Shown in pieces: positions 261-62,913 of a DNA stretch of 64,000 nt (its first letter is position 1; each line of letters begins with the position of its first letter). The position numbers and the translations under genes are program-made. The notes beneath the pieces were generated by a model that saw only the letters and a program-made list of their open reading frames with translations, had not been told where the DNA came from and made no database searches. The stretch comes from an uncultured Eubacteriales bacterium (GTDB lineage: Bacteria; Bacillota; Clostridia; Oscillospirales; Acutalibacteraceae), in contig CAYJKT010000001.1 in NCBI GenBank assembly GCA_964370775.1, forward strand, positions 89,542 to 153,541. The letters run 5' to 3'.

Positions 261-1985
261 ATGCAAAGACTAAAAAGAATCATAGCAACACTTATCACAG
301 CGGCTCTTTTAGTATCTTCATTTGCTGCTTGCTCTACAGACACTGCTGAGAGCTCAGGCACAGCATCAGAAGGAACTGAATCATCTGCTACAGAGAGCGG
401 AGAAGAGAGCGGAGAGGCAGAAGGTGGAGAAGCTGTTACTTCGGTAGGTAACACAAACACAACTGGTTTACCAATCGCTATCGAGCCTATCTCTTATACA
501 GTGATGAACCAAAAAACTTCATCTGACAAATCAGGTGGACAAAATGACAAAGATATTATGACACTTTCAACCGAGGGTACAAATATCAGCATTGAGTGGA
601 CAGAGACAACAGAGGCTTCTTTCCAAGATACCCTTAACCTAATGCTTGCAACAGGCGACGGTATGCCTGATGGTATTTTAACAGGTTCTATGTCAGAAGC
701 TCAAGTTACTGAAAATATTCATAACTTCTATGCAATGACAGACGACACTCTAAGAACATTTGCGCCTAACATTGTTGAGCAAATGGAAGCAAACACTGAT
801 GGTGGACTAGACGAACTAAGAAAATCTGACGGAGTTATCTACACATTGCCAGTAGGCGTGTGGTCAGAGTATGCTAACTGGGCTACTGCTATTACATACA
901 TCAGAACAGAATGGATAGATACTTTAGGTTTAGAAATGCCTTCTACTATGGAAGAATTATATGATGTTCTAGTAGCGTTTAAAAATGACGACCCTAACGG
1001 TAATGGAACTGCAGATGAAATTCCATTCATCTTTGCTCAAAATAACTGGGCTGCAAAAATGCAACAATTAGCTGGTTCATGGGGCATGGCTGGTAGAAAC
1101 TTAAACAACGACCAATGGTATGGTAGAGTTGAAGATGGTCAATATATTTTAAATATCAATGATCAAAGATTTTACGATTTCTTAGTAGAGATGAACAGAT
1201 GGTATGAAGCTGGACTTATTAACGAAGACGGTTTCTCTATGACAGGCCCTGAGTATAACTCATTGGTACAACAAGATGTGCATGGTATGCATGGTTCATG
1301 GGCACCAACTCCAGAAGATTGGACAAGTGGAAAATGGACAAACCTACCTGTTTTAACAGTCGAAGGTTATGAAGAAGAAGCTATGAAACCAGGCGAAATC
1401 AACTTTAGATCAGCTGGTATGAACGGTTTCTCTATCACATCAACTTGTGAAGAACCAGAAGGTTTGCTACGTTGGTGGGATCATGTTCACTCAGAAACAG
1501 AGTGGAAACTTATCGGTAGAGATGGCCCAGAGGGCATAGCATGGGAATATGGCGAAGACGGAACAGCGTATGTAAAATCAGTTGATCCATATCCAGACGG
1601 CTTGACAAATGAGACAGAAGTACACAACACTTATGCTTGGCGTGCAGTTTCTCCAATCCTATTTGTTGGCGAAGCAGCTATTCCAAACCCAGACAATCTA
1701 AGTGCTGATGGTATCAGATACGAAGTTGGCCCTTACTACGAAGAGTTCTTCCCAGAAGAGCATATTCCTGTAACTCCAATTCCAGCTGATGCAGCAGAAG
1801 ATTTTGCTTTAGCTAAATCTGAGATTGAGAACGAAGTTGAAGTTTTCTTTGCAAACAGCGTTGTTAACGGTATCACAGAAGAGAGCTGGAACGAGTACCT
1901 AGCTAACCTAGAAGCATTCGGTATAGACGAATGGGTAAGCTTCTACCAAAGCTATGTAAGCGGTGACTGGTCTGCTTGGGAATAA
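261..1985 (+). CDS. extracellular solute-binding lipoprotein, LplA/YtcQ-like (CUT1-associated sugar SBP), paralog 2
   Basis: 574 aa; lipoprotein signal with lipobox FAAC-S; Ser/Glu/Gly-rich linker; motifs DGVIYTLP, WIDTLGLEMPSTMEELYDVLVAFKNDDPNGNGTADEIPF typical of large family-1 sugar SBPs; RBS AAGGAAG upstream. Confidence 0.8.
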   Translation: MQRLKRIIATLITAALLVSSFAACSTDTAESSGTASEGTESSATESGEESGEAEGGEAVTSVGNTNTTGLPIAIEPISYTVMNQKTSSDKSGGQNDKDIMTLSTEGTNISIEWTETTEASFQDTLNLMLATGDGMPDGILTGSMSEAQVTENIHNFYAMTDDTLRTFAPNIVEQMEANTDGGLDELRKSDGVIYTLPVGVWSEYANWATAITYIRTEWIDTLGLEMPSTMEELYDVLVAFKNDDPNGNGTADEIPFIFAQNNWAAKMQQLAGSWGMAGRNLNNDQWYGRVEDGQYILNINDQRFYDFLVEMNRWYEAGLINEDGFSMTGPEYNSLVQQDVHGMHGSWAPTPEDWTSGKWTNLPVLTVEGYEEEAMKPGEINFRSAGMNGFSITSTCEEPEGLLRWWDHVHSETEWKLIGRDGPEGIAWEYGEDGTAYVKSVDPYPDGLTNETEVHNTYAWRAVSPILFVGEAAIPNPDNLSADGIRYEVGPYYEEFFPEEHIPVTPIPADAAEDFALAKSEIENEVEVFFANSVVNGITEESWNEYLANLEAFGIDEWVSFYQSYVSGDWSAWE

Positions 1986-2134
1986 TCCCAAAAAATATTT
2001 GTTAATATTGACTTAATATATTGTAGGGCAAGGTTTTGACCATAACGAGATATTTATGGTTAAGACACTACCCTACATAATATTGTGTAATTCGATTTTA
2101 ATTAAATAAGAAACAATTAGGTAATAAATATACA

Positions 2135-2190
2135 TTCCCTGTAGGTGTATATTATAAAACAAATTACAGACCAAGATAATTTAATTATCT
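2135..2190. repeat. conserved ~55-bp intergenic element (ttccctgtagg-N17-attacagacca-ttaattat), copy 1, downstream of SBP paralog 2 / upstream of paralog 3
   Basis: Near-identical motif pair recurs at 4042..4090 with the same spacing; overlaps -35/spacer of AT-rich -10-like hexamers (TATATT/TATTAT). Confidence 0.5.
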
Positions 2191-2233
2191 AATGCCAAAA
2201 GGCAATTTATTTTCGAAAGGAAGAAATAAGACT

Positions 2234-3952
2234 ATGCAAAAACTAAAAAGAATTATAGCTACGTTAATCACAGCAGCTCTTTTAGTATCTTCATTTGCTG
2301 CGTGCTCTACAGACACTGCTGAGAGCTCAGGCACAGCATCAGAAGGAACTGAATCATCTGCAACAGATAGCGAAGGCGGAGAAGAAGAGGGTGGAGAAGC
2401 TGTTACTTCTGTGGGCAACACAAATGTATCAGGTTTACCAATTGCTATCGAGCCTATCACTTACACAGTGATGAACCAAAAACCTTCATCAGATAAATCA
2501 TCTGGTCAAAATGAAAAAGATATTATGACTCTTTCAACAGAGGGTACAAATGTAAGCATTGAGTGGACAGAGACAACAGAGGCATCTTTCCAAGATACTC
2601 TTAACTTAACACTTGCAACAGGCGACGGTATGCCAGATGCTATCATGACAGGTTCTATGTCAGAAGCACAAGTTACTGGTAACCTTCATAACTTCTTTGC
2701 TTTAACAGATGACACATTAAGAACATTTGCTCCTAACATTGTAGAGCAAATTGAAGCAAACACAGAAGGTGGACTAGACGAGTTAAGAAAAACTGACGGA
2801 GTTATCTATACTCTACCAGTAGGTGTTTGGTCAGAGTATGCTAACTGGGCAAGTGCTATACCTTACATCAGAACAGAGTGGTTAGATACTCTAGGTTTAG
2901 AAGTACCTTCTACTATCGAAGAGTTATACGATGTTCTAGTAGCATTTAAAAATGACGACCCTAACGGTAACGGAACTGCTGATGAAATTCCTATGATTTT
3001 TGCTCAAAACAACTGGGCAGCTAAATTACAAATATTAGCTGGTTCATGGGGTATGGCTGGTAGAAACCTAAACAACGACCAATGGTATGGTAGAGTTGAA
3101 GATGGTCAATACATATTAAATATCAATGATCAAAGATTTTACGATTACTTAGTAGAGATGAACAGATGGTATGAAGCTGGTCTTATCAATGGAGACGGTT
3201 TCTCAATGACAGGTCCTGAGTTTAACTCACTAAAACAACAAGATATTCATGGTTTAGTTGGCGATTGGACTCCTACAGTTGAAGCTTGGGAAAGTGGCGC
3301 ATGGACAAACCTACCTGTATTAACAGCAGAAGGTTATGAAGATATGGCTATGAAATCAGGCGAAACTAACTTTAAATCAGTTGCTTTAAACGGTTTTGCT
3401 ATCACTACTAGTTGTGAAGAGCCAGAAGGCTTACTACGTTGGTGGGATAATGTTCACTCAGACACAGAGTGGAAACTTATCTCTAGAGATGGTCCAGAAG
3501 GCATAGCATGGGAATATGGCGAAGACGGTACAGCGTATGTAAAATCAGTTGATCCACTTCCAGATGGTTTAACAACTGAGACAGAAGTACACAACACTTA
3601 TGCTTGGCGTTCAGTTTCTGCTGTTCTATTCACTGGCGAATCAGCTATTCCAAACCCAGATGTTTTAAGTGCTGACGGTATCAGATACGAAATCATTCCT
3701 CAATACGAAGAGTATTTCCCAACAGAGCACATTCCTTCTACTCCAACACCTGCAGATGCAACAGAAGATTTCGCATTAGCGAAATCTGAGATTGAAAACG
3801 AAGTTGAAGTTTTCTTTGCAAACAGCGTTGTTAACGGAATTACACAAGATAGCTGGAACGAGTACCTAGCTAACCTAGAAGCATTCGGTATAGACGAATG
3901 GGTAAGCTTCTACCAAAGCTATGTAAGCGGTGACTGGTCTGCTTGGGAATAA
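2234..3952 (+). CDS. extracellular solute-binding lipoprotein, LplA/YtcQ-like, paralog 3 (about 85 percent identical to paralog 2)
   Basis: ORF 2192..3952 trimmed to MQKLKRIIATL start preceded by GGAAG RBS; same lipobox and domain motifs as 261..1985. Confidence 0.8.
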   Translation: MQKLKRIIATLITAALLVSSFAACSTDTAESSGTASEGTESSATDSEGGEEEGGEAVTSVGNTNVSGLPIAIEPITYTVMNQKPSSDKSSGQNEKDIMTLSTEGTNVSIEWTETTEASFQDTLNLTLATGDGMPDAIMTGSMSEAQVTGNLHNFFALTDDTLRTFAPNIVEQIEANTEGGLDELRKTDGVIYTLPVGVWSEYANWASAIPYIRTEWLDTLGLEVPSTIEELYDVLVAFKNDDPNGNGTADEIPMIFAQNNWAAKLQILAGSWGMAGRNLNNDQWYGRVEDGQYILNINDQRFYDYLVEMNRWYEAGLINGDGFSMTGPEFNSLKQQDIHGLVGDWTPTVEAWESGAWTNLPVLTAEGYEDMAMKSGETNFKSVALNGFAITTSCEEPEGLLRWWDNVHSDTEWKLISRDGPEGIAWEYGEDGTAYVKSVDPLPDGLTTETEVHNTYAWRSVSAVLFTGESAIPNPDVLSADGIRYEIIPQYEEYFPTEHIPSTPTPADATEDFALAKSEIENEVEVFFANSVVNGITQDSWNEYLANLEAFGIDEWVSFYQSYVSGDWSAWE

Positions 3953-9289: not shown

Positions 9290-9472
9290 TTATTTTGGAA
9301 GCCCTAACCAAATAGCGAAAAGTGCTAGAGTTATTCCTAAAATAATAGCTACGATATTCCAAATAATACCTTTATTATTTTTCAATCGAGAAATAGCGAA
9401 AACTACTAAAAATATTCCTGCAATCATAGAAAAAAGCATTATAAAAAATCCCATTTTACACCACCCTTTCAA
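9290..9472 (-). CDS. 60-aa two-helix micro membrane protein, last gene of the XRE-FtsX-ABC operon (overlaps ATPase 3' end by 17 nt)
   Basis: MKGWCKMGFFIMLFSMIAGIFLVVFAISRLKNNKGIIWNIVAIILGITLALFAIWLGLPK: two hydrophobic helices; translationally coupled position. Confidence 0.4.
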   Translation of the reverse strand: MKGWCKMGFFIMLFSMIAGIFLVVFAISRLKNNKGIIWNIVAIILGITLALFAIWLGLPK

Positions 9473-10121
9473 GATGTATTATTTTTTCATGTCGATTAGC
9501 AACCTCTAAATCGTGAGTAACAGTGATAATAGTGGTGTTAAAATCGTGGTTCATTTTAAAAAGTAAATTAATGATATTATCCTTGTTTTCACCATCTAAA
9601 GAAGCAGTAGGTTCATCGCACAAAATAAGCTGAGGTTTCATAATTATAGCACGTGCAAATACAGCACGAGATTTTTCGCCACCAGAGCACTCTATTGGTT
9701 TCTTTTTTAATATTGATGAAATACCGATTGAATTAACGATATTTTCAAAACCTTTTGATAAATCATTTTTATGAGAAGTTGCGTACAGTAAAGGTAGCTT
9801 GATATTTTCTTCAATAGTTAAAGAATGAATTAAAGCTGATTCTTGAAGAACAAAACCAATCTTTTGATTACGCAATGTTGCTAGTTGTGTTAAATTCAAA
9901 GCGTCAGTTACAGAGCCAAAAAGCGTGTAATTGCCAATATAATGTGTGTCTAGCAAACCAAGAATATTGAGTAAAGTAGTTTTTCCTACGCCTGATTTTC
10001 CTACAATTGCAATTTTTTCACCAGCATATACTTCAAGATCAAAACCATTTAAAATTGAAAGATGTTGCTTTTTGCTTTTATATATTTTTTCGTGAATATT
10101 TAGGTCAATAATCTTTTTCAT
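9456..10121 (-). CDS. ABC transporter ATP-binding protein (MacB/FtsE/LolD-type)
   Basis: Walker A GKSGVGKTT, signature CSGGEKSRAVFARAI, Walker B ILCDEPTASLD; start trimmed to MKKIIDLN whose ATG overlaps permease stop (ATGA). Confidence 0.85.
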   Translation of the reverse strand: MKKIIDLNIHEKIYKSKKQHLSILNGFDLEVYAGEKIAIVGKSGVGKTTLLNILGLLDTHYIGNYTLFGSVTDALNLTQLATLRNQKIGFVLQESALIHSLTIEENIKLPLLYATSHKNDLSKGFENIVNSIGISSILKKKPIECSGGEKSRAVFARAIIMKPQLILCDEPTASLDGENKDNIINLLFKMNHDFNTTIITVTHDLEVANRHEKIIHLERVV

Positions 10122-11338
10122 TGTAACACCCCCAAAGAAATTGGAACTTTTTTTATTCTCCATATCACGACTTCGACAATAATTATCCCAATAATAATAT
10201 CAAAAAATAGCACTGCCAATAATGCGACCCAATCAATCTCAGCTAAGCCGAGGAAACCGAATGTAGCGAAGAAAAGCTCTTTTCTTGCCCAAAATCCGTA
10301 TCTTGAATATGCAGTTGTAGCAAAAAGTGCAACTAAATTTATTAAAAACAATATTCCATAGTAGCCATAAAAAATCTGTTTCAATCTCGAATAGCTTAAT
10401 CCAACAAACAAGTTAATGGTAAAATCTTTAATCATAAGGCGTATACCAACTAATGAACTCCAAACAGAAAGACAAGTTAAAATTATTACAACGATTATTG
10501 TTATTACACCAATGGTCTTTAATGAACTGAAATAATATTGATTAAAAAACTCAAAATTCTCTTGTTGCGTATTAAATTTAAAGTCTAAGCCTAAATTATC
10601 TTGAATAACTTCGCTTAATTCCTCAATTTTATCTTTTGAAGTTTGAACAAGTATAATGTCGAAAAGCCCATTAAGGTGAAGTCCAATATTTGAATTAGCT
10701 ATAAATTCTTCAGTTATAGGTAAAATAACAGAAAAATTATAATACTGTTTTGAACTGATTGCATAAAGATTAGAATGATATATATCCTGTTTCAAAATGC
10801 CTTGGACTTTCAGCGTTATAGTTTTTTCGAGTACAGGGTCTTCAATATTGAATGTAGAACCTAACGGATATGTTTCGCTTAACCCTTTTCCAATCAAAAC
10901 AGGAATTTCTATATCTCCATCAAAACTGTAATCAAAAACCAAATTTTCCCCTTGTGATATTTCAAATTGCTTATTCAAGTTATAATATTCTTCATTTATA
11001 TAAGCCACCGATACTTCCATATCATAAGTATTAGGTACTGGGATGGTAAATCCATCTGTAAACAAAGCATAGTTTAAATTATCATTTAAATAGTCGTAAA
11101 CTTTTTGTGTATCATCTTTATCAAGTATACCCATATCACTATCAATGCTTAAATTTGCAATATAATTACCTTCTTGATTTAAATATTTTATTTCATTATA
11201 CCCTTGCAGAGTAGATGTGACTGAACGAGTGGCAGTGAAAATTAGGTAATTACTCAAAAAGATCAATAAAAACACACCCAATATAATCATAGCCTTTCTT
11301 AGAAAAAATTTTACTATAAAAAAATTAAAGATTTTCAA
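10118..11338 (-). CDS. ABC transporter permease, FtsX-like (MacB/HrtB-type: N-terminal TM, about 230-aa extracytoplasmic domain, C-terminal 3-TM FtsX module)
   Basis: 406 aa; topology from hydrophobic segments; immediately followed by and coupled to ABC ATPase. Confidence 0.65.
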   Translation of the reverse strand: MKIFNFFIVKFFLRKAMIILGVFLLIFLSNYLIFTATRSVTSTLQGYNEIKYLNQEGNYIANLSIDSDMGILDKDDTQKVYDYLNDNLNYALFTDGFTIPVPNTYDMEVSVAYINEEYYNLNKQFEISQGENLVFDYSFDGDIEIPVLIGKGLSETYPLGSTFNIEDPVLEKTITLKVQGILKQDIYHSNLYAISSKQYYNFSVILPITEEFIANSNIGLHLNGLFDIILVQTSKDKIEELSEVIQDNLGLDFKFNTQQENFEFFNQYYFSSLKTIGVITIIVVIILTCLSVWSSLVGIRLMIKDFTINLFVGLSYSRLKQIFYGYYGILFLINLVALFATTAYSRYGFWARKELFFATFGFLGLAEIDWVALLAVLFFDIIIGIIIVEVVIWRIKKVPISLGVLQ

Positions 11339-11771
11339 ATTTTCTAACCTCCCTCGAACTGATTAATATATATATAACAAAAATACAAAATAAGTAAATG
11401 CTATTCTCTAAGTGTATATTCAAAATAATATTGACAATTAATGATAAGAAAAAAACAATTCCTAACATCATCAAACATTCAAGAACATAGCGAGTAATAA
11501 TGGCTTGCACGGTATCTCCTACAATAAATCTGCAATATACTTCCACCTTTTTTTTACGTAACACTTGGTAATGAAAAATTACCACGATGATTGAAAGAAA
11601 CAAGATAATATACTTTTGATAATTATACAATTGCATTAAAAAAATTTCCATGAGATGCGAATCTATACTTACTGTTTTAACAAAATCAAATATTATATTG
11701 AAAGCAAAGCAAAGCATATAGCAACTAAGTAATTCCAATCTATCTACATATCTAAACAAAGATTTACTCAT
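11325..11771 (-). CDS. hypothetical polytopic membrane protein (about 4 TM), 148 aa
   Basis: Hydrophobic segments; RBS AAGGAGAG; overlaps permease start by 14 nt, 27 nt after XRE gene stop. Confidence 0.45.
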   Translation of the reverse strand: MSKSLFRYVDRLELLSCYMLCFAFNIIFDFVKTVSIDSHLMEIFLMQLYNYQKYIILFLSIIVVIFHYQVLRKKKVEVYCRFIVGDTVQAIITRYVLECLMMLGIVFFLSLIVNIILNIHLENSIYLFCIFVIYILISSREVRKFENL

Positions 11772-11798
11772 TTATCTCTCCTTTTATGATGGCATATA

Positions 11799-12305
11799 TC
11801 ATCTTTTTCGTGTAAGAAATATTCCGATAATCGAACCTAGTAATGCTATTGGTGCTAATCGTACAAATAACCATTCGATACCGTGTAAAATTGTTCCTGC
11901 AACAGCTAAATCAGGTTTGCTATAATCCCATTCTAAATACGAACTGTTCATTAATAATAAGATTACAAAAAGTGCTACTATAGCCAAACTCACCGAAATG
12001 AAAAACACATGTAGCACTTTTCGTCTGGTGGCAATTATTTTAGATAATTGCAAATTGACTATCTCTAATTTCTCGGATATAGCTTTTAAGTCATCTGCAT
12101 TTTCTTGTGTAATGGATTCGCCAAGCAAAACACTTACTGGTGTTTCAAGATGTTCAGATATTAAAAGCAACATTTCTGAATCCGGAACAGACAATCCTTT
12201 CTCCCATTTTGATATAGTTTGTCGCACAACATTTAACTTTATAGCAAGTTCTTCTTGAGAAAGTCCTTTTGATTTTCTTATTATTTTAATATTTTCATTT
12301 AACAT
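11799..12305 (-). CDS. XRE-family helix-turn-helix transcriptional regulator with two C-terminal transmembrane helices (membrane-anchored)
   Basis: MLNENIKIIRKSKGLSQEELAIKLNVVRQTISKWEKGLSVPDSEMLLLISEHL is a canonical HTH_XRE; C-terminal VLHVFFISVSLAIVALFVILLLM and LAPIALLGSIIGIFLT helices; start set at ATG after AAGGGAGG RBS (track ORF extended upstream through the promoter). Confidence 0.7.
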   Translation of the reverse strand: MLNENIKIIRKSKGLSQEELAIKLNVVRQTISKWEKGLSVPDSEMLLLISEHLETPVSVLLGESITQENADDLKAISEKLEIVNLQLSKIIATRRKVLHVFFISVSLAIVALFVILLLMNSSYLEWDYSKPDLAVAGTILHGIEWLFVRLAPIALLGSIIGIFLTRKR

Positions 12306-12426
12306 GGTAAATACCTCCCTTATATTTGAAATTATAACCGATTTTTGCCCATTGCCACAAGCAACGCATGTTAACATTAGTGTTTTTCTTAAGAAAATAA
12401 GCAAAAAACTATCATACCGACAAAAT

Positions 12427-16814: not shown

Positions 16815-18356
16815 ATGGAATACATAATCATTATATTGCTAATAATAAGTATAGGCTTAAACATATTTATGCTTATTAAGTCACAAAATAAAAAAGATAA
16901 TTCATCTGAGATATTAAGTTTGATTGACGACACAAGCAGTAAAACAAAAAGTGAAGTAGTGACAGAGTTTGATAAGGCTCAAAAAAATACTATTGATTTT
17001 GTGCAAAAACAGTTAGAGATGTATAGCTCTAACCAAGTTAACACACAAAAACAACTTGCAGATATTGAAAGCAAAAGGTTTAGTGATTTTTCAGAGAATA
17101 CACAGAACTCTATTACCAATTTAAGAGAAACAGTTAACGAAATGTCGCTAAGAACAGACAAACGTTTTGTAGATTTTCAAAAACAAAACGAAGAAAGTCT
17201 TCAAAATAATATTGATTTTGTGCGAAAACAGCTAGAGACTTATAGCTCTAACCAAGTTAACACACAAAAACAACTTGCAGATATTGAAAGCAAAAGGTTT
17301 AGTGATTTTTCAGAGAACACACAGAACTCTATCACAAATTTAAGACGAACAGTTAACGAGATGTTGCAAACAACGGACAAGCGTTTTGTAGATTTTCAAA
17401 AACAAAACGAAGAAAGTCTTGAGAAAATGCGTAGCACACTAGAGAAAAAAGTTGTGGATATGCAAGTTAGCAACGAGAAAAAGCTTGATGAAATGCGTGC
17501 TACTGTAGACGAAAAACTGCAAAAAACATTAAATGACAGAATTAGCGAAAGCTTTAAAGTTGTTAGTGAAAGACTTGAACAAGTGTATAAATCTTTAGGA
17601 GAAATGCAAAAACTTAGCACAGGTGTTGATGATCTTAAAAAAGTGTTATCGAACGTTAAAACAAGAGGTATATTAGGCGAAGTTCAACTAGGGGCGATAC
17701 TAGAGCAAATTCTTAACAAAGAGCAATATGTGGAGAACTTCCCAACTAAAAAAGGGTCAAACGACAGGGTAGAATTTGCTGTTAAATTACCAGGTGATGA
17801 CAATGATTTTGTGTATCTGCCAATAGATGCGAAATTCCCAATGGACGCGTATCAAAACCTTTTAGAAGCGTATGACAGTGCAGACAAAGCGAAAGTTGAT
17901 GAGATGTCTAAGGTGTTGATTAATAGAATTAAAGGCTTTGCAAAAGACATTAAGAACAAGTATATTGATGTGCCACACACAACAGAATTTGCTGTAATGT
18001 TCTTGCCGATTGAGGGTTTATATGCAGAGGTTGTAAGGCTAGGTCTTGTTGAGCAATTACAAGCAGATAAGATAAACATTGCAGGGCCTACAACAATGGC
18101 GGCGTTGTTAAGTAGTTTGCAAATGGGATTTAAAACTCTGGCAATACAAAAACGTTCTAGCGAGGTTTGGAAAGTTCTAGAGGGTGTAAAACAAGAGTTC
18201 ACAAAATTTGGAGATGCACTAGAAAAAACAAGACAAAGAATGAAGCAAACTTCTGATGAACTTGATAAACTTGTGACAACTAGAACCAACGCAATTAATA
18301 GAAAGCTTAGAGATGTAAGCACAATTGACGGAATAGACAGTGGAAATGAAGAATAG
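16815..18356 (+). CDS. rmuC: DNA recombination protein RmuC, with internal in-frame tandem duplication
   Basis: C-terminal RmuC core VLSNVKTRGILGEVQLGAILEQIL...YLPIDAKFPMDAYQ; N-terminal coiled-coil region. Confidence 0.8.
   Translation: MEYIIIILLIISIGLNIFMLIKSQNKKDNSSEILSLIDDTSSKTKSEVVTEFDKAQKNTIDFVQKQLEMYSSNQVNTQKQLADIESKRFSDFSENTQNSITNLRETVNEMSLRTDKRFVDFQKQNEESLQNNIDFVRKQLETYSSNQVNTQKQLADIESKRFSDFSENTQNSITNLRRTVNEMLQTTDKRFVDFQKQNEESLEKMRSTLEKKVVDMQVSNEKKLDEMRATVDEKLQKTLNDRISESFKVVSERLEQVYKSLGEMQKLSTGVDDLKKVLSNVKTRGILGEVQLGAILEQILNKEQYVENFPTKKGSNDRVEFAVKLPGDDNDFVYLPIDAKFPMDAYQNLLEAYDSADKAKVDEMSKVLINRIKGFAKDIKNKYIDVPHTTEFAVMFLPIEGLYAEVVRLGLVEQLQADKINIAGPTTMAALLSSLQMGFKTLAIQKRSSEVWKVLEGVKQEFTKFGDALEKTRQRMKQTSDELDKLVTTRTNAINRKLRDVSTIDGIDSGNEE
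16992..17429 (+). repeat. 2 x 219-bp in-frame tandem repeat (73 aa each, about 90 percent nt identity) inside rmuC
   Basis: attgattttgtgc(a/g)aaaacag... unit restarts at 17211; protein repeat IDFV(Q/R)KQLE.YSSNQVNTQKQLADIESKRFSDFSENTQNSITNLR.TVNEM...DKRFVDFQKQNEESL. Confidence 0.85.
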
Positions 18357-23359: not shown

Positions 23360-25819
23360 TTATTTTGTTGAATTTGCTAGGTGTTTTTCTATAATACTTC
23401 CTTTATCGTATATAGCGTTATCAAATATAGCGCCGTCTAAAATAGCGTTATTAAAATTTGCGCCTCGTAAATCGCAATTTGAAAAATTTGTGCCACTTAG
23501 GTTTGCATAAGTAAAGTTTGCACTTATAAGCTTAGAATTACTAAAATCTGAGTTATGTATATTGGCACGGTAAAAATCTGAGTCGTTCATAGTGCAATTG
23601 ATTAATTCTGCATCATAAAAATAAGCATTATAAAAAGAAGAATTAATAAGATTAACTTCGTAGAAATCGGCTTCGAAAATAGTAGCGTAAGAAAAATCGC
23701 TATCATTTAGAGTGCATTCAAATAAATATGCTGAATTTAATATAGCCCTAGAAAAATTTGAATATATCATAGTAGAATCTATAATATAAACACTTGTTAA
23801 ATCCGAATTAGCAAAAATCGAATTAGCTAGGTTGGAGTTGGATAAATTAATACCATCAAGATCTGAAAATGACAAGTCACAAGAAGAAAAATTTATATTT
23901 ACTAAAGAAGCGCCATTCAATAGACTTCTTCTTAAGTCACAATCTTTTGCTACTGTATTCTGCAAATATAGTCCAGCACAGTCATAAGCTTGAATGCATG
24001 AATGAATATTATTTAGCCTAATCTTTGTGTTTGTAATCGTATTTGCAACTAAAATAATATTAAAAAAACTTAACTCGGCTTGGCGTAATCTGTTACCCTT
24101 AGTAGGGTTTTTCGGTATGCAATTTGTTGTAGCAATAAAATTTTCTAATTTTCTTGTGTTTAAATCAAAGTAATTGATATTAGTCAGATTATAGATAAAA
24201 CCTACAATATCTTCATCAATTAAGTCGTAAGATAAACTCTCACAAAGGGTTTCGTAGTCTTCGTTAACTAACAGATTAAATATATATTTTGCAAAGAAAA
24301 ATTGATAAAATGATCGATGAATAAATTCTACTCTGTTGTCACTTACTCTTGTGTAAAAATGTGCTAAAACAGGTGTAATGTTTTGGGTAACTGGGTTTTC
24401 GTCGTTTTTGTAATACTCAAAAGCACATTGATTTAAACTATCGTGAAAATGTGCAATGTCATCAAGTCCATTACCTATTCTAGTGCGTTCTCGCTCGGTA
24501 ATTTTATCTAAGATAGCGATATACAAATCGGCTCTATTTCTCATGTTGGAATACACACCATAAAATGCAACTAATTGCAATAACAACGGTATACTGACAA
24601 GGTCATACAAAGTCTTATGTTCTGTCAAATCTGCTTCAGTACACTGGTATTTTATTTCACTCATAGAATTATATACATCAATCCAATTTACTATCTCTTT
24701 TGGGTTGAGGGTTCTTAATGTTTGAACTGTGACAGAATGTTTTTCTAGGTTATCTGTAATATAATTAGGACGTGAAGATATGACAAACTTAACTTTATTA
24801 TACTTTTGCAGATAAGTTACAAGAGATGTTTCTGCTTTTTCTTTTGTCGTGTCAAGTATCTCTCTTAGCGTATCGATTACCTCATCAAAGCCGTCTAAAT
24901 ACACTGCTAAATTATTTTCTTTTGTCAGTTGAATTTCCGTGTCTAGGTCTAGTTTAAAACCAATTTTCTCAATACCTAGTGGAGTTGCTATTACTTTTAC
25001 ATTACTGCTATTGATAATGTCGGTAAGCTTGATGTAGGCGATGTTTTCAATCTTTCCGTCAAACAGTTGTTTGTTGCTAGTAACAAAGTCATATAGCAAC
25101 TTTATGCCTAAACTGCTCTTCCCATGACCTGCTTCGCCAGTAATAAACATAATGTTTTGTTCTGAGTTCAACCATTTGCTGATTGTAGGGTATATGTCAC
25201 CACTCTCAAAATGAGGTTCTATGTAGTAATCTTTAAGCTTAAATTCGTCACCTATAATCAAATTTTTACGCTCGTAAATATAAGTCATGTCTTTGTAATG
25301 GCTATCGAAAATACTAGGTGGTGGGGGAGGTGATGTTAATTTTTCAAGCAATTCGATAAGTTTTTTAATTTCAGCACCCAATATTTTAGTGCTATGATTA
25401 ACAACACTTCTTTGCTCGTCATTCAATGGGTTTAGTGAATAGAATAAGTAATAATATAAAAATGTTAAAATGTTGATTATCTGATTTTTTTTATGAACAT
25501 TTATAGCTTTTCCAGACGAGCTGTAATACATATTAACTTGCATTTCAATGCTATCACATATCTCGTCGTGTGTTTTACTTAATTCATATTTTGCCATATA
25601 ATACATTGTTTCTGCAAGACCTGTATTACCAAAAATCAGCTCTATTTCATCTGTATAGCTATCGTCTATATTAAAAGATAAATCCATTTCCTTGAACTCA
25701 TCAAAGAATTTTTGGTTCTGTTTAATTTTTTTTGCTTCTTTATATTTAACAGAGATTTTACTCCAAGCTAAGTCCCAAATCTTCCCACTTAAAAAAGAAG
25801 CCAACCCTAATTCTACCAT
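23360..25819 (-). CDS. STAND NTPase of the NACHT clade (bacterial NLR-like): unknown N-terminal domain (~165 aa) - PPPPP linker - NACHT - helical region - C-terminal pentapeptide repeats
   Basis: Walker A FITGEAGHGKSSLG; NACHT-type Walker B VYLDGFDEVID (hhhhDGhDE); C-terminus with >15 A(D/N)LxxA(N/D)F pentapeptide repeats (e.g. ANFTYANLSGTNFSNCDLRGANFNNAILDGAIF); start at MVELGL after GGGAGG RBS (track ORF begins at an upstream GTG inside the RBS). Confidence 0.8.
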   Translation of the reverse strand: MVELGLASFLSGKIWDLAWSKISVKYKEAKKIKQNQKFFDEFKEMDLSFNIDDSYTDEIELIFGNTGLAETMYYMAKYELSKTHDEICDSIEMQVNMYYSSSGKAINVHKKNQIINILTFLYYYLFYSLNPLNDEQRSVVNHSTKILGAEIKKLIELLEKLTSPPPPPSIFDSHYKDMTYIYERKNLIIGDEFKLKDYYIEPHFESGDIYPTISKWLNSEQNIMFITGEAGHGKSSLGIKLLYDFVTSNKQLFDGKIENIAYIKLTDIINSSNVKVIATPLGIEKIGFKLDLDTEIQLTKENNLAVYLDGFDEVIDTLREILDTTKEKAETSLVTYLQKYNKVKFVISSRPNYITDNLEKHSVTVQTLRTLNPKEIVNWIDVYNSMSEIKYQCTEADLTEHKTLYDLVSIPLLLQLVAFYGVYSNMRNRADLYIAILDKITERERTRIGNGLDDIAHFHDSLNQCAFEYYKNDENPVTQNITPVLAHFYTRVSDNRVEFIHRSFYQFFFAKYIFNLLVNEDYETLCESLSYDLIDEDIVGFIYNLTNINYFDLNTRKLENFIATTNCIPKNPTKGNRLRQAELSFFNIILVANTITNTKIRLNNIHSCIQAYDCAGLYLQNTVAKDCDLRRSLLNGASLVNINFSSCDLSFSDLDGINLSNSNLANSIFANSDLTSVYIIDSTMIYSNFSRAILNSAYLFECTLNDSDFSYATIFEADFYEVNLINSSFYNAYFYDAELINCTMNDSDFYRANIHNSDFSNSKLISANFTYANLSGTNFSNCDLRGANFNNAILDGAIFDNAIYDKGSIIEKHLANSTK

Positions 25820-25893
25820 GCCAAAACCTCCCACAGTTATTTCAATAATTTTACCATATATTGTAAAAAAATGAAATAGTTTGTAGAAAAAAA

Positions 25894-25919
25894 GTAGCCA
25901 TGAAATTAATCATGGCTAC
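25894..25919 (-). terminator. terminator of PASTA gene (gtagccatg-N8-catggctac + T7 on minus strand), separating it from NACHT gene
   Basis: 9-bp perfect stem followed by TTTTTTT on minus strand. Confidence 0.6.
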
Positions 25920-25925
25920 TGAGCT

Positions 25926-27788
25926 TTATTCGGTTACCGTTGTAGTATCTGTTGCAGTATCTGGAGTGATAGTGCCGTCTGGTACAGTGGTGTCTGGTTC
26001 TTCGGTTGGTGGAGTAACTGGTATTTCTACTTCTTCGCCTCCTAAAGATAGCGTAATAGATGAACCCAGTGCAACTGTAGAGCCTGCTGTAGCAGATTGT
26101 GCCACAACTTTGTCTTGCATGTTTTCTACAAAGTCACCTGTTGTGTAAGTGATAGAGAATAGCTTATCATAACCATTATTTATGATTTCAGCCTCTGTCA
26201 TTCCACTAAAATCTGGTACAGTTTGAACATTGTTAACAGGTACATATTTGATGTGAATTTCTGTACCTTGTTGTGTTTCGTACCCAGCTTCTAAGCTTTG
26301 CCACCACACTTCGCCTTGCAATCTGCCCTCTGCATATTCAGCAGTGAAAACAGGTACTAACTGTAGCTCGTTGCATATCTCCATAGCTTTTTCCCTTGTC
26401 ATAATGTCTGAGTATGCATTGCCAGCATTTAGTACTAAATCTGGAACATAAACTACATCACCTTTTGACACAACTAAGTTTAGTGTAGTTGATATACCTA
26501 TTTTTGTTGACTCTTTGTCTTGTGTTAGAATTGTACCACTGCTTAGTTCAGAGGTTGTGTATTGGATAGACACTTTTAGACTAGCACCTAACTCGTTATA
26601 TGGTTCTATCCAAGTGTAAACAGAATCAATGCTTTGTCCAACGAAAGATGGAACAGTAAAGCTGTTTCCTAAAGAATAAGTAAGCTCAATAATTTGGTCG
26701 TCATACAAAGTACCTGACTCAACTGATTGATATATCAGATTACCTTCGTTAGAGCTTGAATATTTCTCTTTAACTATAGTCATTATACCAAGTTGAGAAG
26801 CCACAGCAGATGCTTTTTCTTGAGAATATTCATAGAAGTTAGGAACAATTATTTCTTCACCTTTTGATACATTCAAGGTGATAGTATCGCCCTCTCTAAC
26901 AACTTCTTCAGCTTTGATGCTTTGTTTAAAGATAGTGTTTTCTGGGTAAGTATCATGGAATTCTTCAATCAATTCTAGCTTAATATTATTTTCTTCTGCA
27001 AAAGTTTTAGTAGCTTCTAAAGTCATGGTTGTAAAGTCTGGCAGAGTAACTGCTTCGCCCTCGCCTTGTCCTTTAGAGAACACTACGTACAGTGGGCTAT
27101 CTCTGCGAATTTCTTTATCCAAAACGCTGTCGTCGTTTATTGTGAACGAGATAACCTCGCCCTCTGGCACAGTTTCGCTGTCTTCTGATGTCACACGAAC
27201 TTTGCTCATGTGGTTTTCTTCCGCCCAATCTTCAACCTCTGCCATAGTCATAGCTTCAATATCTGGCACTGCTACCAAGATGCTTAAATCAGGTCCGTTA
27301 GATATTGTAAGCTCTATAAAGCTACCACTGCTAACAGTTTCGCCCTCTACTGGGTTTTGTACAAATATTTCATTAAGTGCAACAGTGTCGCTATACTCTG
27401 TTTCTGCACGAATTAGAACATCATTTTCGGTCGCCCAAAGTTCTGCTTCGGTTCGTGTCCAGCCTATCATGTTTGGAACAGCAGTGCCTCTGTTTAAAAG
27501 AATTACTGTTACAATAATCGCAATAACAGCTACAACTGCTATACCGATATAGACAACAGGAATGTGTCTCTCGGTAGTTTTTGCTCGGTTTCTGTTTCTT
27601 GGAGGTTCAAAACTGCTTTGTTCCTCAAAGTTAAAGTTATCGCTACTGCTACTTAGCTCGTTAGTATCAGCATCTTGTGTAGTTTTTAGTGTCCTGTTTG
27701 TAGGTCTAACACTCTCCAATTCGCTAGGGATATTCTCTGTGTTAGATTCATTGTTTCTTTTGTAGTTGTTCAAAAAATTGTTGTCCAT
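25926..27788 (-). CDS. membrane-anchored protein with seven tandem PASTA domains and no kinase or transpeptidase domain; disordered cytoplasmic N-tail, Thr/Pro/Asp-rich C-tail
   Basis: TM HIPVVYIGIAVVAVIAIIVTVILL then 7 repeats each starting (V/T)VP(D/N/S)(F/M/I/L) and about 65-70 aa long, ending ..SKG(D/E/Q). Confidence 0.7.
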   Translation of the reverse strand: MDNNFLNNYKRNNESNTENIPSELESVRPTNRTLKTTQDADTNELSSSSDNFNFEEQSSFEPPRNRNRAKTTERHIPVVYIGIAVVAVIAIIVTVILLNRGTAVPNMIGWTRTEAELWATENDVLIRAETEYSDTVALNEIFVQNPVEGETVSSGSFIELTISNGPDLSILVAVPDIEAMTMAEVEDWAEENHMSKVRVTSEDSETVPEGEVISFTINDDSVLDKEIRRDSPLYVVFSKGQGEGEAVTLPDFTTMTLEATKTFAEENNIKLELIEEFHDTYPENTIFKQSIKAEEVVREGDTITLNVSKGEEIIVPNFYEYSQEKASAVASQLGIMTIVKEKYSSSNEGNLIYQSVESGTLYDDQIIELTYSLGNSFTVPSFVGQSIDSVYTWIEPYNELGASLKVSIQYTTSELSSGTILTQDKESTKIGISTTLNLVVSKGDVVYVPDLVLNAGNAYSDIMTREKAMEICNELQLVPVFTAEYAEGRLQGEVWWQSLEAGYETQQGTEIHIKYVPVNNVQTVPDFSGMTEAEIINNGYDKLFSITYTTGDFVENMQDKVVAQSATAGSTVALGSSITLSLGGEEVEIPVTPPTEEPDTTVPDGTITPDTATDTTTVTE

Positions 27789-34112: not shown

Positions 34113-35522
34113 ATGGATAAAAGAGAACAAATGCTTGCAGAGGGTAAAATTAGTGGATTGATTTTAAAGTATTCGCTTCCGGCAATATTAAGTGGATTGA
34201 TAAGTGCGATATATAACATTGTAGACCAAATATTTATAGGTCAACAAGTAGGTGTTATAGGAAACTCTGCTACAAACGTTGTGTTTCCAGTGGTTATGAT
34301 AACCTCTGCACTTGCTACTTTAATAGGTGTGGGTACGTCTAGTAATTTTAGCTTGGCAAGAGGCAGAAAAGACGAAGATTTGTCTAAAAAATTCATTGGA
34401 AACGGAATTTTAATGGCTGTTGTGTGGGGCGTGACTATTTGTGTTATAGCACTGCTTTTTTCGTCTCAGATTTTAAACGTATCAGGTGCAACTCCTGCAA
34501 ACATGGAATATGCACAAACATATTTAGGTATACTTGCACTGGGTTTTCCGTTTTTTGTGTTTAGTACATCGGTTAGCCACATAATAAGAGCAGATGGTTC
34601 ACCAAAATATTCAATGATATGTATAGGCTCAGGCGCTATTTTGAACATAGTTTTAGATGCACTATTTATGTATGGTTTTAACATGGGCATAGCAGGGGCA
34701 GCGTGGGCAACGGTGATAGGGCAGGTTGTGTCAGCAGGGTTATCAGTTAAATATTTAACTAAATTTAAGACGTTTAAGTTAGATAAAAGTGTGATTTCTC
34801 TTAAATTTTTTGCTATGAAAAAAATCGCATTGCTGGGAATTGCTCCATTTGTGAACCAAATCTCAATATCCATAACTCAAATTGCAATGAATAACACAAT
34901 TACCTTATACGGTGCGGACTCAATTTATGGAACGGATATTCCACTTGCATGTGTGGGGATTATCACAAAAGTTAACATGATTTTTGTGACTATAGCTATA
35001 GGCATAGGGCAAGGCTCTCAACCGATTATCGGCTTTAACTACGGCGCTAAAAATTACACTAGAGTTATGGAAGCGATACGTAAAAATTTGATGTATGTAA
35101 GTGTTGTGTCAGTAATGGCGTTCTGTGCGTTTCAGATTTTCCCAAGACAAATTACGTCTTTGTTTGGCGACGGAAGCGAATTGTACTTTGAATTTGCAGA
35201 AAGTTATTTTAGAATATTCATGTTTATGGCATTTACCATTGGAATTCAACCAGTTGCTGGCAACTTTTTTACTTCACTTGGCAAATCCACAAGAGGTGTG
35301 TTTATATCGCTTACTAAACAGATTTTATTCTTACTGCCACTCATAATTATTTTACCAATGTTCATGGGTTTAGACGGTGTATTGTATGCTGGCCCGATTG
35401 CAGATACTGCTGCTGTTTTAGTGTCTAGCATATTGTTAATTAAAGAATACAGAAATCTAAAAAGGTTAGATAATGAACAAAATGCAGTAAAAAAACTGAC
35501 AGAAAGAGAAATTTTATGCTAG
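34113..35522 (+). CDS. MATE family efflux transporter
   Basis: 469 aa, 12 TM; N-terminal LKYSLPAILSGLISAIYNIVDQIFIGQ typical MATE. Confidence 0.85.
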   Translation: MDKREQMLAEGKISGLILKYSLPAILSGLISAIYNIVDQIFIGQQVGVIGNSATNVVFPVVMITSALATLIGVGTSSNFSLARGRKDEDLSKKFIGNGILMAVVWGVTICVIALLFSSQILNVSGATPANMEYAQTYLGILALGFPFFVFSTSVSHIIRADGSPKYSMICIGSGAILNIVLDALFMYGFNMGIAGAAWATVIGQVVSAGLSVKYLTKFKTFKLDKSVISLKFFAMKKIALLGIAPFVNQISISITQIAMNNTITLYGADSIYGTDIPLACVGIITKVNMIFVTIAIGIGQGSQPIIGFNYGAKNYTRVMEAIRKNLMYVSVVSVMAFCAFQIFPRQITSLFGDGSELYFEFAESYFRIFMFMAFTIGIQPVAGNFFTSLGKSTRGVFISLTKQILFLLPLIIILPMFMGLDGVLYAGPIADTAAVLVSSILLIKEYRNLKRLDNEQNAVKKLTEREILC

Positions 35523-35531
35523 TAAGTTTTG
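35505..35531 (+). repeat. 27-bp perfect direct repeat, left copy (agagaaattttatgctagtaagttttg), spans MATE stop codon
   Basis: Identical 27-mer recurs at 36807..36833. Confidence 0.85.
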
Positions 35532-35554
35532 TGCTGTAATTAATGTACGAATGA

Positions 35555-35583
35555 TTGACAAAATTTGCCTAGCAGTGTATAAT
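35555..35583 (+). promoter_or_regulatory. perfect consensus sigma-A promoter TTGACA-17-TATAAT driving the acyltransferase gene
   Basis: TTGACAaaatttgcctagcagtgTATAAT, about 58 nt upstream of ATG at 35642. Confidence 0.6.
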
Positions 35584-35641
35584 AATTATTAGGTGATTTA
35601 TCATTATATCTTGAAAAATAATTGTAATTTTGGGAGGAAAC

Positions 35642-36739
35642 ATGGAAAAAAAATTCTATGATAATTTTAATGGAGTTAGAACTTTAGCAGCTGTTACTAT
35701 TGTATTTATGCACGTGTTACAAACAGCTTCTTACACTTTTAAACCTGGATTGGTTTCAGATTTAGCTTATATATATTTATATAATTCTTATGTTTTTGTT
35801 GAGCTCTTTTTTATGATAAGTGGTTTTTCATTGTGTTGTGGATATTATGAAAGAATTAAAAATAACAAAATGAATATCAATGATTTCTATAGTAAAAGAT
35901 ATACAAGGATTTTACCTTTTTTTGCTATATTGGTATGTCTAGATTTATTAGCAACTTTTCTGTTCGGCAGTGGAATAACTATGTCAGTTTTATATGAAGC
36001 TTACGCAAACTTTACACTGTTGTTTGGTTTTCTTCCTATGGTTGATATCAGTGTAATTGGTGTTGGTTGGACTTTAGGAGTAATATTTGGTTTTTATATA
36101 GTATTTCCATTTTTTGTATATACATTATGGACTAAACGCAGAGCATGGTTTTGGTTGCTAGTATTTTTAGGAATTAACTATGTTACATCTGTTTATTTTG
36201 TGGGAGAAAATGGACCTATAAAAACTAACACATTCAGATTTCTTTGCTTCTTTACAGTTGGTGGTATTTTATATCTATATAAAGATAAAATCGACAATAT
36301 GTATAATAAGTTAAGTAAAAGTGTATCAATGGTAGTGTCTGTACTATTTCTTATTGTGGGGCTAATCATTAGTGTTTATTTTGAAGATAACAATAATTAT
36401 ACCAATATACTTGCGCTGTGGCTCACTGTGAAAAATATTTTAGCGTTTGCGCTCATACTAATTTCTGCTATGGCTCCTAACCACAAAGTGTTAGATAATA
36501 TATTTACGAAATATATGAGCAACATAAGCTTTGAAATTTATTTATCTCACATGTTAATGTATAGAGTTGTAGAAATGGTGGGATTAATAGCTATTTTTGG
36601 AAACACTGTACATGGTTATATCATTGTTTCTTTAGCAGTTCTTGCAGGTTCTACAGCATTCTCTATTGTGTTTAAGATAATAGAGAAAAAAGTTTTTGCT
36701 TATCTAGATAAAAGAAAATTAGCAAAAACTACAGTCTAA
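35642..36739 (+). CDS. acyltransferase family 3 protein (OatA/O-antigen acetylase-like integral membrane acyltransferase)
   Basis: MEKKFYDNFNGVRTLAAVTIVFMHV (acyl_transf_3 N-terminal motif), about 10 TM; start at MEKKFY after GGGAGG RBS. Confidence 0.75.
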   Translation: MEKKFYDNFNGVRTLAAVTIVFMHVLQTASYTFKPGLVSDLAYIYLYNSYVFVELFFMISGFSLCCGYYERIKNNKMNINDFYSKRYTRILPFFAILVCLDLLATFLFGSGITMSVLYEAYANFTLLFGFLPMVDISVIGVGWTLGVIFGFYIVFPFFVYTLWTKRRAWFWLLVFLGINYVTSVYFVGENGPIKTNTFRFLCFFTVGGILYLYKDKIDNMYNKLSKSVSMVVSVLFLIVGLIISVYFEDNNNYTNILALWLTVKNILAFALILISAMAPNHKVLDNIFTKYMSNISFEIYLSHMLMYRVVEMVGLIAIFGNTVHGYIIVSLAVLAGSTAFSIVFKIIEKKVFAYLDKRKLAKTTV

Positions 36740-36752
36740 TTTATACAAAATA

Positions 36753-36800
36753 AATCCGAATTCTAATGTTTTGCATGAGAGTTCGGATTGTTATTTTTTA
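36753..36800 (+). terminator. terminator-like hairpin after acyltransferase gene (aatccgaa-N20-ttcggatt + TTATTTTTT)
   Basis: 8-bp stem, long loop, T-tract. Confidence 0.5.
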
Positions 36801-36806
36801 TTATGG

Positions 36807-36833
36807 AGAGAAATTTTATGCTAGTAAGTTTTG
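36807..36833 (+). repeat. 27-bp perfect direct repeat, right copy, spans antiporter start codon
   Basis: Identical to 35505..35531. Confidence 0.85.
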
Positions 36834-37990
36834 CACTTATTTTTATTTTAAGTTTAATACTCAGTACGGTTTTTAACAAGCTGAAACTACCTAGGTTTTT
36901 AGGCATGCTTTTAACAGGTATAATACTTTCTGCATTATCGCTTATCGATGATAGTATACTTAATATATCGGCTGATTTACGAGAGATTGCACTTATAATT
37001 ATACTTACAAGAGCTGGCTTAACACTAGATTTAAAAGTGTTAAAAAAAGTTGGTAGACCAGCAATTTTAATGAGCTTTGTTCCAGCTCTTTTTGAGATTA
37101 CAGCTTACATTATTTTTGCACCTATTTTGTTCGGTTTATCAATTACTGAAGCAGCACTAATGGGTTGTGTTTTAGCTGCTGTATCTCCTGCTGTAATTCT
37201 TCCAAGAATGATAAAGCTCACAGAGGAAAAATACGGCACCAAAGAGGGTGTGCCACAGTTAATTATGGCAAGTGCAAGCATTGATGACGTGTTTGTGATA
37301 GTAATGTTTTCGGCTGTTTTAAGCATACAAATTGCTGAAATAAAATCGCTTAACGTAGTTTCTTTCACACTGATACCATTATCGATTTTACTGGGCGTTG
37401 TTATGGGAATTATAGTAGGCATTGCTTTGGTGTGGTTTTTCAAAAAGTTTAGATTACGAGATAGCACAAAGGTGATTGTTCTGCTGAGTGTGTCATTTTT
37501 GATGGTTGCGATAGAGGACTGCGCACCTGTATCAGGGCTTGTGGCTGTAATGGCTGTTGGAGGTACTTTGCTTACAAAATACTCTGATTTATCTGTAAGA
37601 ATGTCGGCTAAATTCTCAAAATTATGGGTCGCAGCAGAGATAATACTCTTTGTATTAGTCGGTGCAAATGTAGATGTTAACTATGCGATAAGGGCTGGGG
37701 GATATGCTCTGCTTTTAATATTAGTTTCCTTATGCTTTAGAGTTTTTGGAGTGTGGCTGTGCTTAATCAAAACCAAGTTAAATTATAAAGAGAGATTATT
37801 TTGCGTGTTCTCATTTTTGCCAAAGGCTACAGTTCAAGCAGCTATTGGCTCAGTTCCACTTGCGATAGGATTGCCTGGTGGTGAAATTATTTTATCTGTA
37901 GCAGTTTTAGGTATAATAATTACAGCGCCTGTTGGTGCATTTTTGATGGATTATTCTTATAAAAAATTGTTGAAACATGAAAAATCATAA
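36818..37990 (+). CDS. cation:proton antiporter (Na+/H+ exchanger family)
   Basis: 390 aa polytopic; N-terminal LILSTVFNKLKLPRFLGMLLTGIILS typical of CPA1/2 exchangers; start at MLVSFA after GGAGAG RBS. Confidence 0.7.
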   Translation: MLVSFALIFILSLILSTVFNKLKLPRFLGMLLTGIILSALSLIDDSILNISADLREIALIIILTRAGLTLDLKVLKKVGRPAILMSFVPALFEITAYIIFAPILFGLSITEAALMGCVLAAVSPAVILPRMIKLTEEKYGTKEGVPQLIMASASIDDVFVIVMFSAVLSIQIAEIKSLNVVSFTLIPLSILLGVVMGIIVGIALVWFFKKFRLRDSTKVIVLLSVSFLMVAIEDCAPVSGLVAVMAVGGTLLTKYSDLSVRMSAKFSKLWVAAEIILFVLVGANVDVNYAIRAGGYALLLILVSLCFRVFGVWLCLIKTKLNYKERLFCVFSFLPKATVQAAIGSVPLAIGLPGGEIILSVAVLGIIITAPVGAFLMDYSYKKLLKHEKS

Positions 37991-62881: not shown

Positions 62882-62913
62882 GTCCTTAACTATATATAGT
62901 TAAGGACTTTTTT
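62882..62913 (+). terminator. rho-independent terminator (gtccttaactatat-atagttaaggac + TTTTTT)
   Basis: Perfect stem then T6. Confidence 0.7.

Follow-up and report, generated by a model that had tools for sequence, protein, structure and literature searches.

Morons, as described by Hendrix and colleagues, are autonomous promoter-gene-terminator units that lie between neighbouring genes of tailed phages, and to our knowledge the mechanism by which they insert is unresolved. In Shigella flexneri, the acyltransferase genes oac, oacB, and oacC are located outside the O-antigen cluster, on prophages, in a transposon-like structure, or on plasmids (PMC4206707). The direct repeats between which tyrosine recombinases act are 8-60 bp long and lie within att sites, and cis-mobilizable elements (CIMEs) are elements that have been stripped of the genes for integration and transfer while attL and attR are kept (PMC5704250). 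Here, we analyze a 64-kb stretch of DNA (the window) from a 191,876-bp contig of an uncultured Eubacteriales bacterium. In the window, a compact transcription unit with a single gene for a membrane O-acyltransferase of the acyltransferase-3 (AT3) family lies between two identical 27-bp sequences, at the junction of a MATE-family efflux transporter gene and a cation/proton antiporter gene. As judged from the sequence, the simplest history of the locus would be a single insertion at an overlapping junction of the two transporter genes, which was duplicated meanwhile. We favor a single insertion of foreign DNA that involved no recombinase and in which repair duplicated the junction, an explanation on which our own judgment is evenly divided.

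The unit resembles a moron in that it is tightly bounded, carries its own strong promoter and terminator, has a somewhat different base composition, and leaves its neighbors undisrupted. Unlike a moron, it lies in the core chromosome (the window contains pyrH-frr-uppS-cdsA-dxr-rseP, polC, and the his operon) and not in a prophage, and it has a visible 27-bp scar. Like the three Shigella genes, it is a lone AT3-family gene away from a glycan cluster with the RxxR motif kept (PMC4206707; PMC12423673). In contrast to them, it was found with no phage, insertion sequence (IS), or plasmid context in the searches described below, only with the 27-bp duplication, and its substrate is putative. Like CIMEs, it has no recombination or transfer genes, its flanking direct repeats have a length between 8 and 60 bp, and its position is the 3' end of a gene that remains intact (PMC5704250). 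It differs from them in being a single gene on 1.3 kb, with no other vestige of an element, and neither an integrase for it nor an intact related element is known. A horizontally acquired orphan glycan acyltransferase is a known kind of gene; what is notable at this locus is the clean 27-bp junction duplication with no mobility gene found among the genes scanned.

The 27-bp repeat and the junction that it spans

The exact 27-mer AGAGAAATTTTATGCTAGTAAGTTTTG occurs twice in the window (Table 1), and no third copy was detected in the 64 kb with up to 3 mismatches allowed. The chance expectation of such a repeat is 0, and 0 matches were obtained in 100 dinucleotide-preserving shuffles, in agreement with the original prediction, which was made from the sequence alone and had called a chance match negligible. 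By an exhaustive k-mer scan of the 64 kb, the 27-mer is the sole isolated exact repeat of at least 18 nt; the other exact repeats of at least this length stem from two paralogous genes in tandem (261-3952) or from a tandem repeat of 219 bp within an RmuC gene. Isolated exact repeats of at least 20 nt with a spacing of 200-6,000 bp numbered 3 in 0.9 Mb of related loci; one of them is a duplicated tRNA region, and none brackets a gene as the 27-mer does. The 27-mer had 0 exact matches in metagenome and viral collections, and its 19-nt core had 0 matches in 96 fetched loci. The repeat is genuine and belongs to no dispersed repeat family, membership in which had been named beforehand as speaking against an insertion.

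Identity ends sharply at both edges of each copy. ACAGAA and TGCTG flank the left copy on its 5' and 3' sides, and TTATGG and CACTT the right copy, respectively. No residual similarity beyond the 27-mer was seen on either side by sequence inspection, and an older, longer duplication was rejected. A Xer/dif-like site was also rejected, as the 27-mer has only weak dyad symmetry and is not known to resemble dif sequences. The copies are 1,275 bp apart, and the 1,302 bp originally given for the interval is instead the repeat period, i.e., the amount deleted on collapse of the repeat.

The source sequence comes from one database contig that has no replicate, and a path A-R-X-R-B, in which R is the 27-mer and X the interval, should give a de Bruijn graph identical to that of an A-R-B chromosome plus an R-X circle. 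The arrangement might then be an assembly or population artefact, with an empty junction in the chromosome and the 1,302-bp segment on a circle of its own or in a fraction of the population only, threaded in by the assembler via the shared 27-mer. Even so, X would adjoin the 27-mer physically at each of its ends, and the biological association thus stands; moreover, a circle of 1.3 kb that has no replication function would probably be lost, and 27 nt is not known as the k-1 of common assembler settings. We give this possibility a very slim chance.

The left copy contains the stop of the MATE gene and the right copy the start of the antiporter gene, as had been noticed at the outset. The final 18 nt of the MATE gene, including its TAG stop (35520-35522), are inside the left copy, and the antiporter ATG (36818) is inside the right copy. 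Among 33 homologues of the antiporter family, the N-terminus MLTSLALIF is conserved, and the window protein, which has full-length homologues of up to 62% identity, starts with MLVSFALIF. At its 3' end, the 27-mer has 16 nt (ATG CTA GTA AGT TTT G) that encode MLVSF, the antiporter N-terminus. Because the family N-terminus is conserved and matched, these 16 nt belong natively to the coding sequence of the antiporter, and in the left copy they are therefore a duplicate of its start that has no function and extends past the MATE stop. When 1,302 bp were removed in silico, the product was a MATE gene ending in ...TEREILC* and an unchanged antiporter gene, which overlap by 7 nt (ATGCTAG), with a Shine-Dalgarno-like purine run AGAAAGAGA upstream of the antiporter ATG. 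The overlap expected from such a deletion is thus restored, at 7 nt and not at the 8 nt first stated. Overlaps between same-strand neighbors are frequent in the window (11 of 43 pairs).

The present ribosome-binding site (RBS) of the antiporter, GGAGAG (36799-36812 region), takes its GG from the inserted unit, outside the repeat. As the two G of the insert complete it, the Shine-Dalgarno sequence is stronger than the reconstructed ancestral AGAAAGAGA. No convincing promoter candidate was found between the terminator of the unit and the antiporter ATG, and expression of the antiporter therefore probably depends on read-through.

Exact-protein look-ups of the MATE protein, the acyltransferase, and the antiporter found none on record. 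The three are singletons among 5.8 billion proteins, with next-best identities of 58%, 47%, and 62%, respectively. The source lineage thus has no relative above ~60% in protein identity, and none near enough to reveal an empty site or attB. A contig scan of 48 MATE homologue loci (~50% identity) revealed no antiporter or acyltransferase gene nearby, and no MATE-antiporter adjacency was present in ~96 homologue loci (48 of MATE, ~45 of the antiporter, including 39 from metagenomes, and single contexts). On this comparison, the junction is apparently lineage-specific. The ancestral overlap is therefore undocumented, and a dedicated site-specific element becomes less likely, as such elements normally target conserved sequences. 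If an empty site exists, its junction is expected to read ACAGAA-27-mer-CACTTATT, and a circle or a tandem arrangement should contain TTATTATGG-27-mer-TGCTGTAA.

These comparisons also bear on the opposite direction of events, in which a resident acyltransferase gene was already in place and ectopic repair or gene conversion later placed a 27-bp copy of the antiporter start at the MATE end, giving MATE a new C-terminal tail. The C-terminal tails of MATE homologues are variable in length and sequence and thus tolerant of change, no relative with MATE-antiporter adjacency documents the ancestral overlap independently, and the codon usage of the acyltransferase gene is not deviant. However, the patch would have had to land in frame and to bring a stop codon at the normal MATE length, and it must also yield a standard 7-nt overlap on removal of the interval. 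It would leave the orphan position of the gene, its own promoter and terminator, and the lower G+C content of the interval unexplained. We consider this patch copying decidedly unlikely.

The acyltransferase unit and its enzyme

The sequence between the two repeat copies is an autonomous promoter-RBS-gene-terminator module (Table 1). Its promoter, already recognized in the original prediction, is the sole site in the window that matches the consensus at all 12 positions, where 0.03 would be expected. The predicted terminator was likewise recovered: its RNA fold has an energy of -19.6 kcal/mol (z = -4.3), which 1 of 200 shuffles equaled, and is followed by a T-run. A simple terminator scan overlooked this hairpin, the loop of which is too long for it, and RNA folding detected it. 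The -35 box follows the left repeat after only 23 nt, and the T-run ends 7 nt short of the right repeat; the insert has no room for any further function.

The acyltransferase gene has a G+C content of 0.287 (z ~ -1.9) and a G+C content at third codon positions of 0.216 (z ~ -1.8), the third lowest of 53 genes. The earlier impression that it is AT-richer than its flanks is borne out to this extent; the deviation is modest, and the codon usage is normal. Base composition would thus weakly support a foreign origin.

The AT3 assignment is clear. PF01757 matches the protein with 120.5 bits against a cut-off of 31, and residues 8-341 align with positions 3-325 of the 326 in the profile. PHROG 3333, an O-acetyltransferase, also matches (3.4e-36). 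All residues that are invariant across a 28-sequence alignment are kept, including R13-X10-H24, R86xxR89, and S296xE298. R13, H24, and R86 are invariant in this alignment and R89 follows (RYTR), and the motifs of both the first and the third transmembrane helix are present. The R-X10-H motif is reportedly one described in work on OafA and OafB. The RxxR motif is reported to be functionally important in OafA, OafB, Oac, and OacB (PMC12423673). The AlphaFold2 model is an all-helical membrane protein (pLDDT 84, pTM 0.84). Its best four matches in PDB are HGSNAT or entries named only "membrane proteins" (probability 0.89-1.00, TM-scores ~0.4, E-values 6e-3 to 0.26). HGSNAT is an acetyl-CoA transmembrane acetyltransferase, and the matches point to a related multi-helix fold, though at TM-scores of only ~0.4; no AT3 structure was found by sequence search.

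The protein shares with OatA, OafA, and OafB the transmembrane AT3 domain with the R-X10-H and RxxR motifs. Unlike these enzymes, it has no C-terminal SGNH domain: a single Pfam domain was detected, its homologues are 340-390 residues long, and this architecture is the one shared with Oac-type enzymes. The acyl_transf_3 part of the original prediction is therefore well founded, whereas the label "OatA-like" does not fit the architecture.

From its sequence features, the enzyme looks functional. Most likely, its acyl (acetyl) donor is cytoplasmic acyl-CoA and its acceptor a cell-surface polysaccharide made by genes elsewhere in the genome, and its activity would modify the cell surface much as that of orphan O-antigen acetylases does. 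The four closest homologues with readable loci (44-46% aligned identity) are all inside polysaccharide-synthesis operons, tightly packed with genes for GT4 glycosyltransferases, dTDP-rhamnose-type (rml-like) genes, a pyruvyl transferase gene, and flippase-like and O-antigen-ligase-like genes. The window copy lies between unrelated transporter genes and is therefore an orphan. For a foreign origin, this context carries more weight than the base composition.

Table 1. Coordinates of the acyltransferase unit, the repeat copies, and the adjoining genes (positions in the window)
Feature	Position	Strand	Remarks
MATE-family efflux transporter gene, 469 aa	34113-35522	+	Pfam MatE E = 1.9e-38; NCBIfam MATE models match
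Left 27-bp repeat copy	35505-35531	+	MATE C-terminal codons REILC* then 9 non-coding nt
Non-functional duplicate ("fossil") of the antiporter start	35516-35531	+	In left copy; stop reached after 7 codons
Inserted unit between repeat copies, 1,275 bp	35532-36806	+	G+C content 0.283 vs 0.353 for window
Sigma-70/sigma-A type promoter, TTGACA-17 nt-TATAAT	35555-35583	+	12/12 match
RBS GGGAGG	35632-35637	+	4 nt before acyltransferase ATG, by sequence inspection
AT3-only membrane O-acyltransferase gene, 365 aa, intact	35642-36739	+	Pfam PF01757 (Acyl_transf_3) E = 1.1e-34
Intrinsic terminator	36752-36799	+	12-13 bp stem AAATCCGAATTCT / AGAGTTCGGATT then GTTATTTTTT
Right 27-bp repeat copy	36807-36833	+	Part of antiporter RBS, spacer, ATG, first 5 codons
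Cation/proton antiporter gene, 390 aa, Na_H_Exchanger family, intact	36818-37990	+	Pfam PF00999 E = 4.9e-39

Mobile-element context and possible routes of insertion

Of the 53 window genes, ~47 were covered by Pfam scans. By this search, neither these genes nor the unit encode an integrase, a transposase, or a phage protein, and the original statement that no recombinase accompanies the unit stands in this range. No terminal inverted repeats are present at the ends of the insert, no second copy of any part of it occurs in the window, and no match to the cassette DNA was obtained in phage and plasmid collections. No tRNA was found in the window, and no Rfam family scored above threshold near the unit. 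An integron gene cassette was rejected, as neither GTTRRRY nor RYYYAAC cores were seen by eye in the 3' hairpin region and no integrase was found; the hairpin folds as a terminator and not as attC, and the cassette has its own consensus promoter. An engineered construct was rejected as well, the organism having no cultured or sequenced relative.

Here, we propose how the locus may have arisen. A compact foreign transcription unit of 1,275 bp, with its consensus promoter and strong RBS, would have been inserted once, at the 7-nt overlap (ATGCTAG) of the MATE and antiporter genes, and 27 bp across the junction would have been copied to both sides during the insertion. The likeliest routes would be fill-in of a staggered break or a template switch in replication, i.e., an illegitimate event that is independent of a recombinase. 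The left copy would thereby have retained the MATE stop, and the right copy the RBS spacer, the ATG, and the first codons of the antiporter. At an overlapping junction, both genes would stay functional only after an insertion that duplicates the junction, and this product may have survived under selection for that reason. An insertion with a 27-bp target duplication, as originally predicted, fits this structure, both in the fossil of the antiporter start and in the intact genes obtained on deletion. "Target duplication" names a pattern here and not a mechanism.

Several points weigh against the proposed insertion by repair. A duplication of 27 bp exceeds the usual target duplications of transposases in length, and we know of no citable bacterial precedent in which break fill-in or template switching yielded exactly such a product. 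The ends of the fragment fit the transcription unit very tightly, which is unexpected for random capture of DNA. The composition gap is only ~1.9 standard deviations, the codon usage of the acyltransferase gene is not outlying, and a block at 9456-12404 is as AT-rich as this gene, so that low G+C content alone does not single out the cassette. No empty site or sister strain was found in the collections searched, and the insertion is deduced from one sequence. Finally, the checks for recombinases and extra copies cover 64 kb of the 191,876-bp contig.

The main rival explanation regards the 27-mers as attL and attR of a decayed or non-autonomous, CIME-like integrative element. A circle with one 27-mer would have integrated at the identical chromosomal sequence at the MATE 3' end, through a tyrosine recombinase encoded elsewhere or through RecA acting on the 27-bp homology, and precise excision would still be possible. 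The repeat length of 27 bp is within the 8-60 bp range of att repeats (PMC5704250), and insertion at the 3' end of a gene with the reading frame restored, as seen here, is typical of such elements; our literature search found none on att repeats of 27 bp. Against this, the window genes scanned include no integrase gene, and other element genes have left no vestige; the promoter is preceded by only 23 nt of insert and the terminator followed by 7 nt. The target junction is absent from all relatives examined and the MATE tails are unconserved, which makes a dedicated attachment site unlikely. The incoming element would also have needed 27 bp of host-specific junction beforehand, and the 27-mer is missing from viral and metagenome collections. 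We regard a CIME-like origin as unlikely, though it is to be taken seriously.

A second recombinase-based route would be the movement of non-autonomous cargo by a trans-acting transposase with long staggered cuts, which would make the 27 bp a true target-site duplication. Duplications of tens to hundreds of base pairs are made by the IS1634 group. Nothing speaks for this route other than the direct target duplication that flanks a discrete insert. The features of a transposon, IS, or miniature inverted-repeat transposable element are absent: the insert has no terminal inverted repeats, no transposase is encoded among the window genes scanned, and the insert is present as a single copy in the window, with no second copy in phage, plasmid, viral, or metagenome collections. 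This origin is highly unlikely in our estimation. A small remainder of probability is kept for mechanisms beyond those named here.

The original prediction had also offered the term moron for the unit. Its own promoter and terminator and its (modestly) differing composition agree with this term, but its location does not. No phage context was found in the window genes scanned, a profile-derived scan found no relatives of the acyltransferase in IMG/VR, and the phage protein matches are Pseudomonas phage acetylases only, with 23-25% identity over approximately half of the protein. The unit could nevertheless be a chromosomal moron with an insertion scar, moved by an undescribed route, such as a 27-nt staggered cut or a trans-acting recombinase that recognizes a 27-bp site, and placed at a gene junction with its neighbors unharmed. 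To this we assign a small chance, and a single insertion with duplication of the junction by repair remains our preferred explanation.

Other features of the window and implications

Other parts of the window contain features that are separate from the unit. The AT-rich block at 9456-12404 lies on the minus strand (G+C content 0.26-0.32) and contains genes for an ABC ATPase, two hydrophobic open reading frames with no Pfam match, and an HTH_3 regulator. The tandem paralogous genes at 261-3952 encode proteins of 574 and 586 aa with no Pfam match at 1e-5. They repeat with a period of 1,967 nt at ~88-91% identity, share an identical 3' end of 102 nt, and precede genes for a GH2 glycosidase, a sulfatase, and a FucU/RbsD protein, which suggests that this region may be a glycan-degradation locus. 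The RmuC-family gene (16815-18356) contains the 219-bp tandem duplication at 16984-17421, which is in frame and 92% identical, with exact stretches of up to 77 nt. At 23360-27788 on the minus strand, the gene for an 824-aa protein with C-terminal pentapeptide repeats adjoins that for a 620-aa protein, in which three PASTA domains are the only Pfam match at 1e-5, with no kinase or transpeptidase domain reported. A perfect palindrome of 26 nt, GTCCTTAACTATATATAGTTAAGGAC, is located at 62882-62907 directly after an HlyIII-family gene and could be a terminator or an operator.

With one genome and no relatives, the locus is a single case and allows no generalization to a new principle. If the unit is in fact a chromosomal moron, and if similar scars recur around other orphan genes, the finding would bear on how single-gene modules insert. 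Whatever the origin of the acyltransferase unit, its direct repeats allow its precise loss. The terminator of the unit now insulates the antiporter from MATE transcription, and expression of the antiporter may have been rewired by the insertion. The predicted O-acylation of a surface polysaccharide is a trait that commonly alters recognition by phages and by the immune system. It is uncommon that the acquisition of a single gene shows its cargo together with its scar and that the state before insertion can be reconstructed unambiguously. The locus thus offers a concrete case of how stand-alone surface-modifying genes may enter chromosomes with no visible mobile-element machinery.

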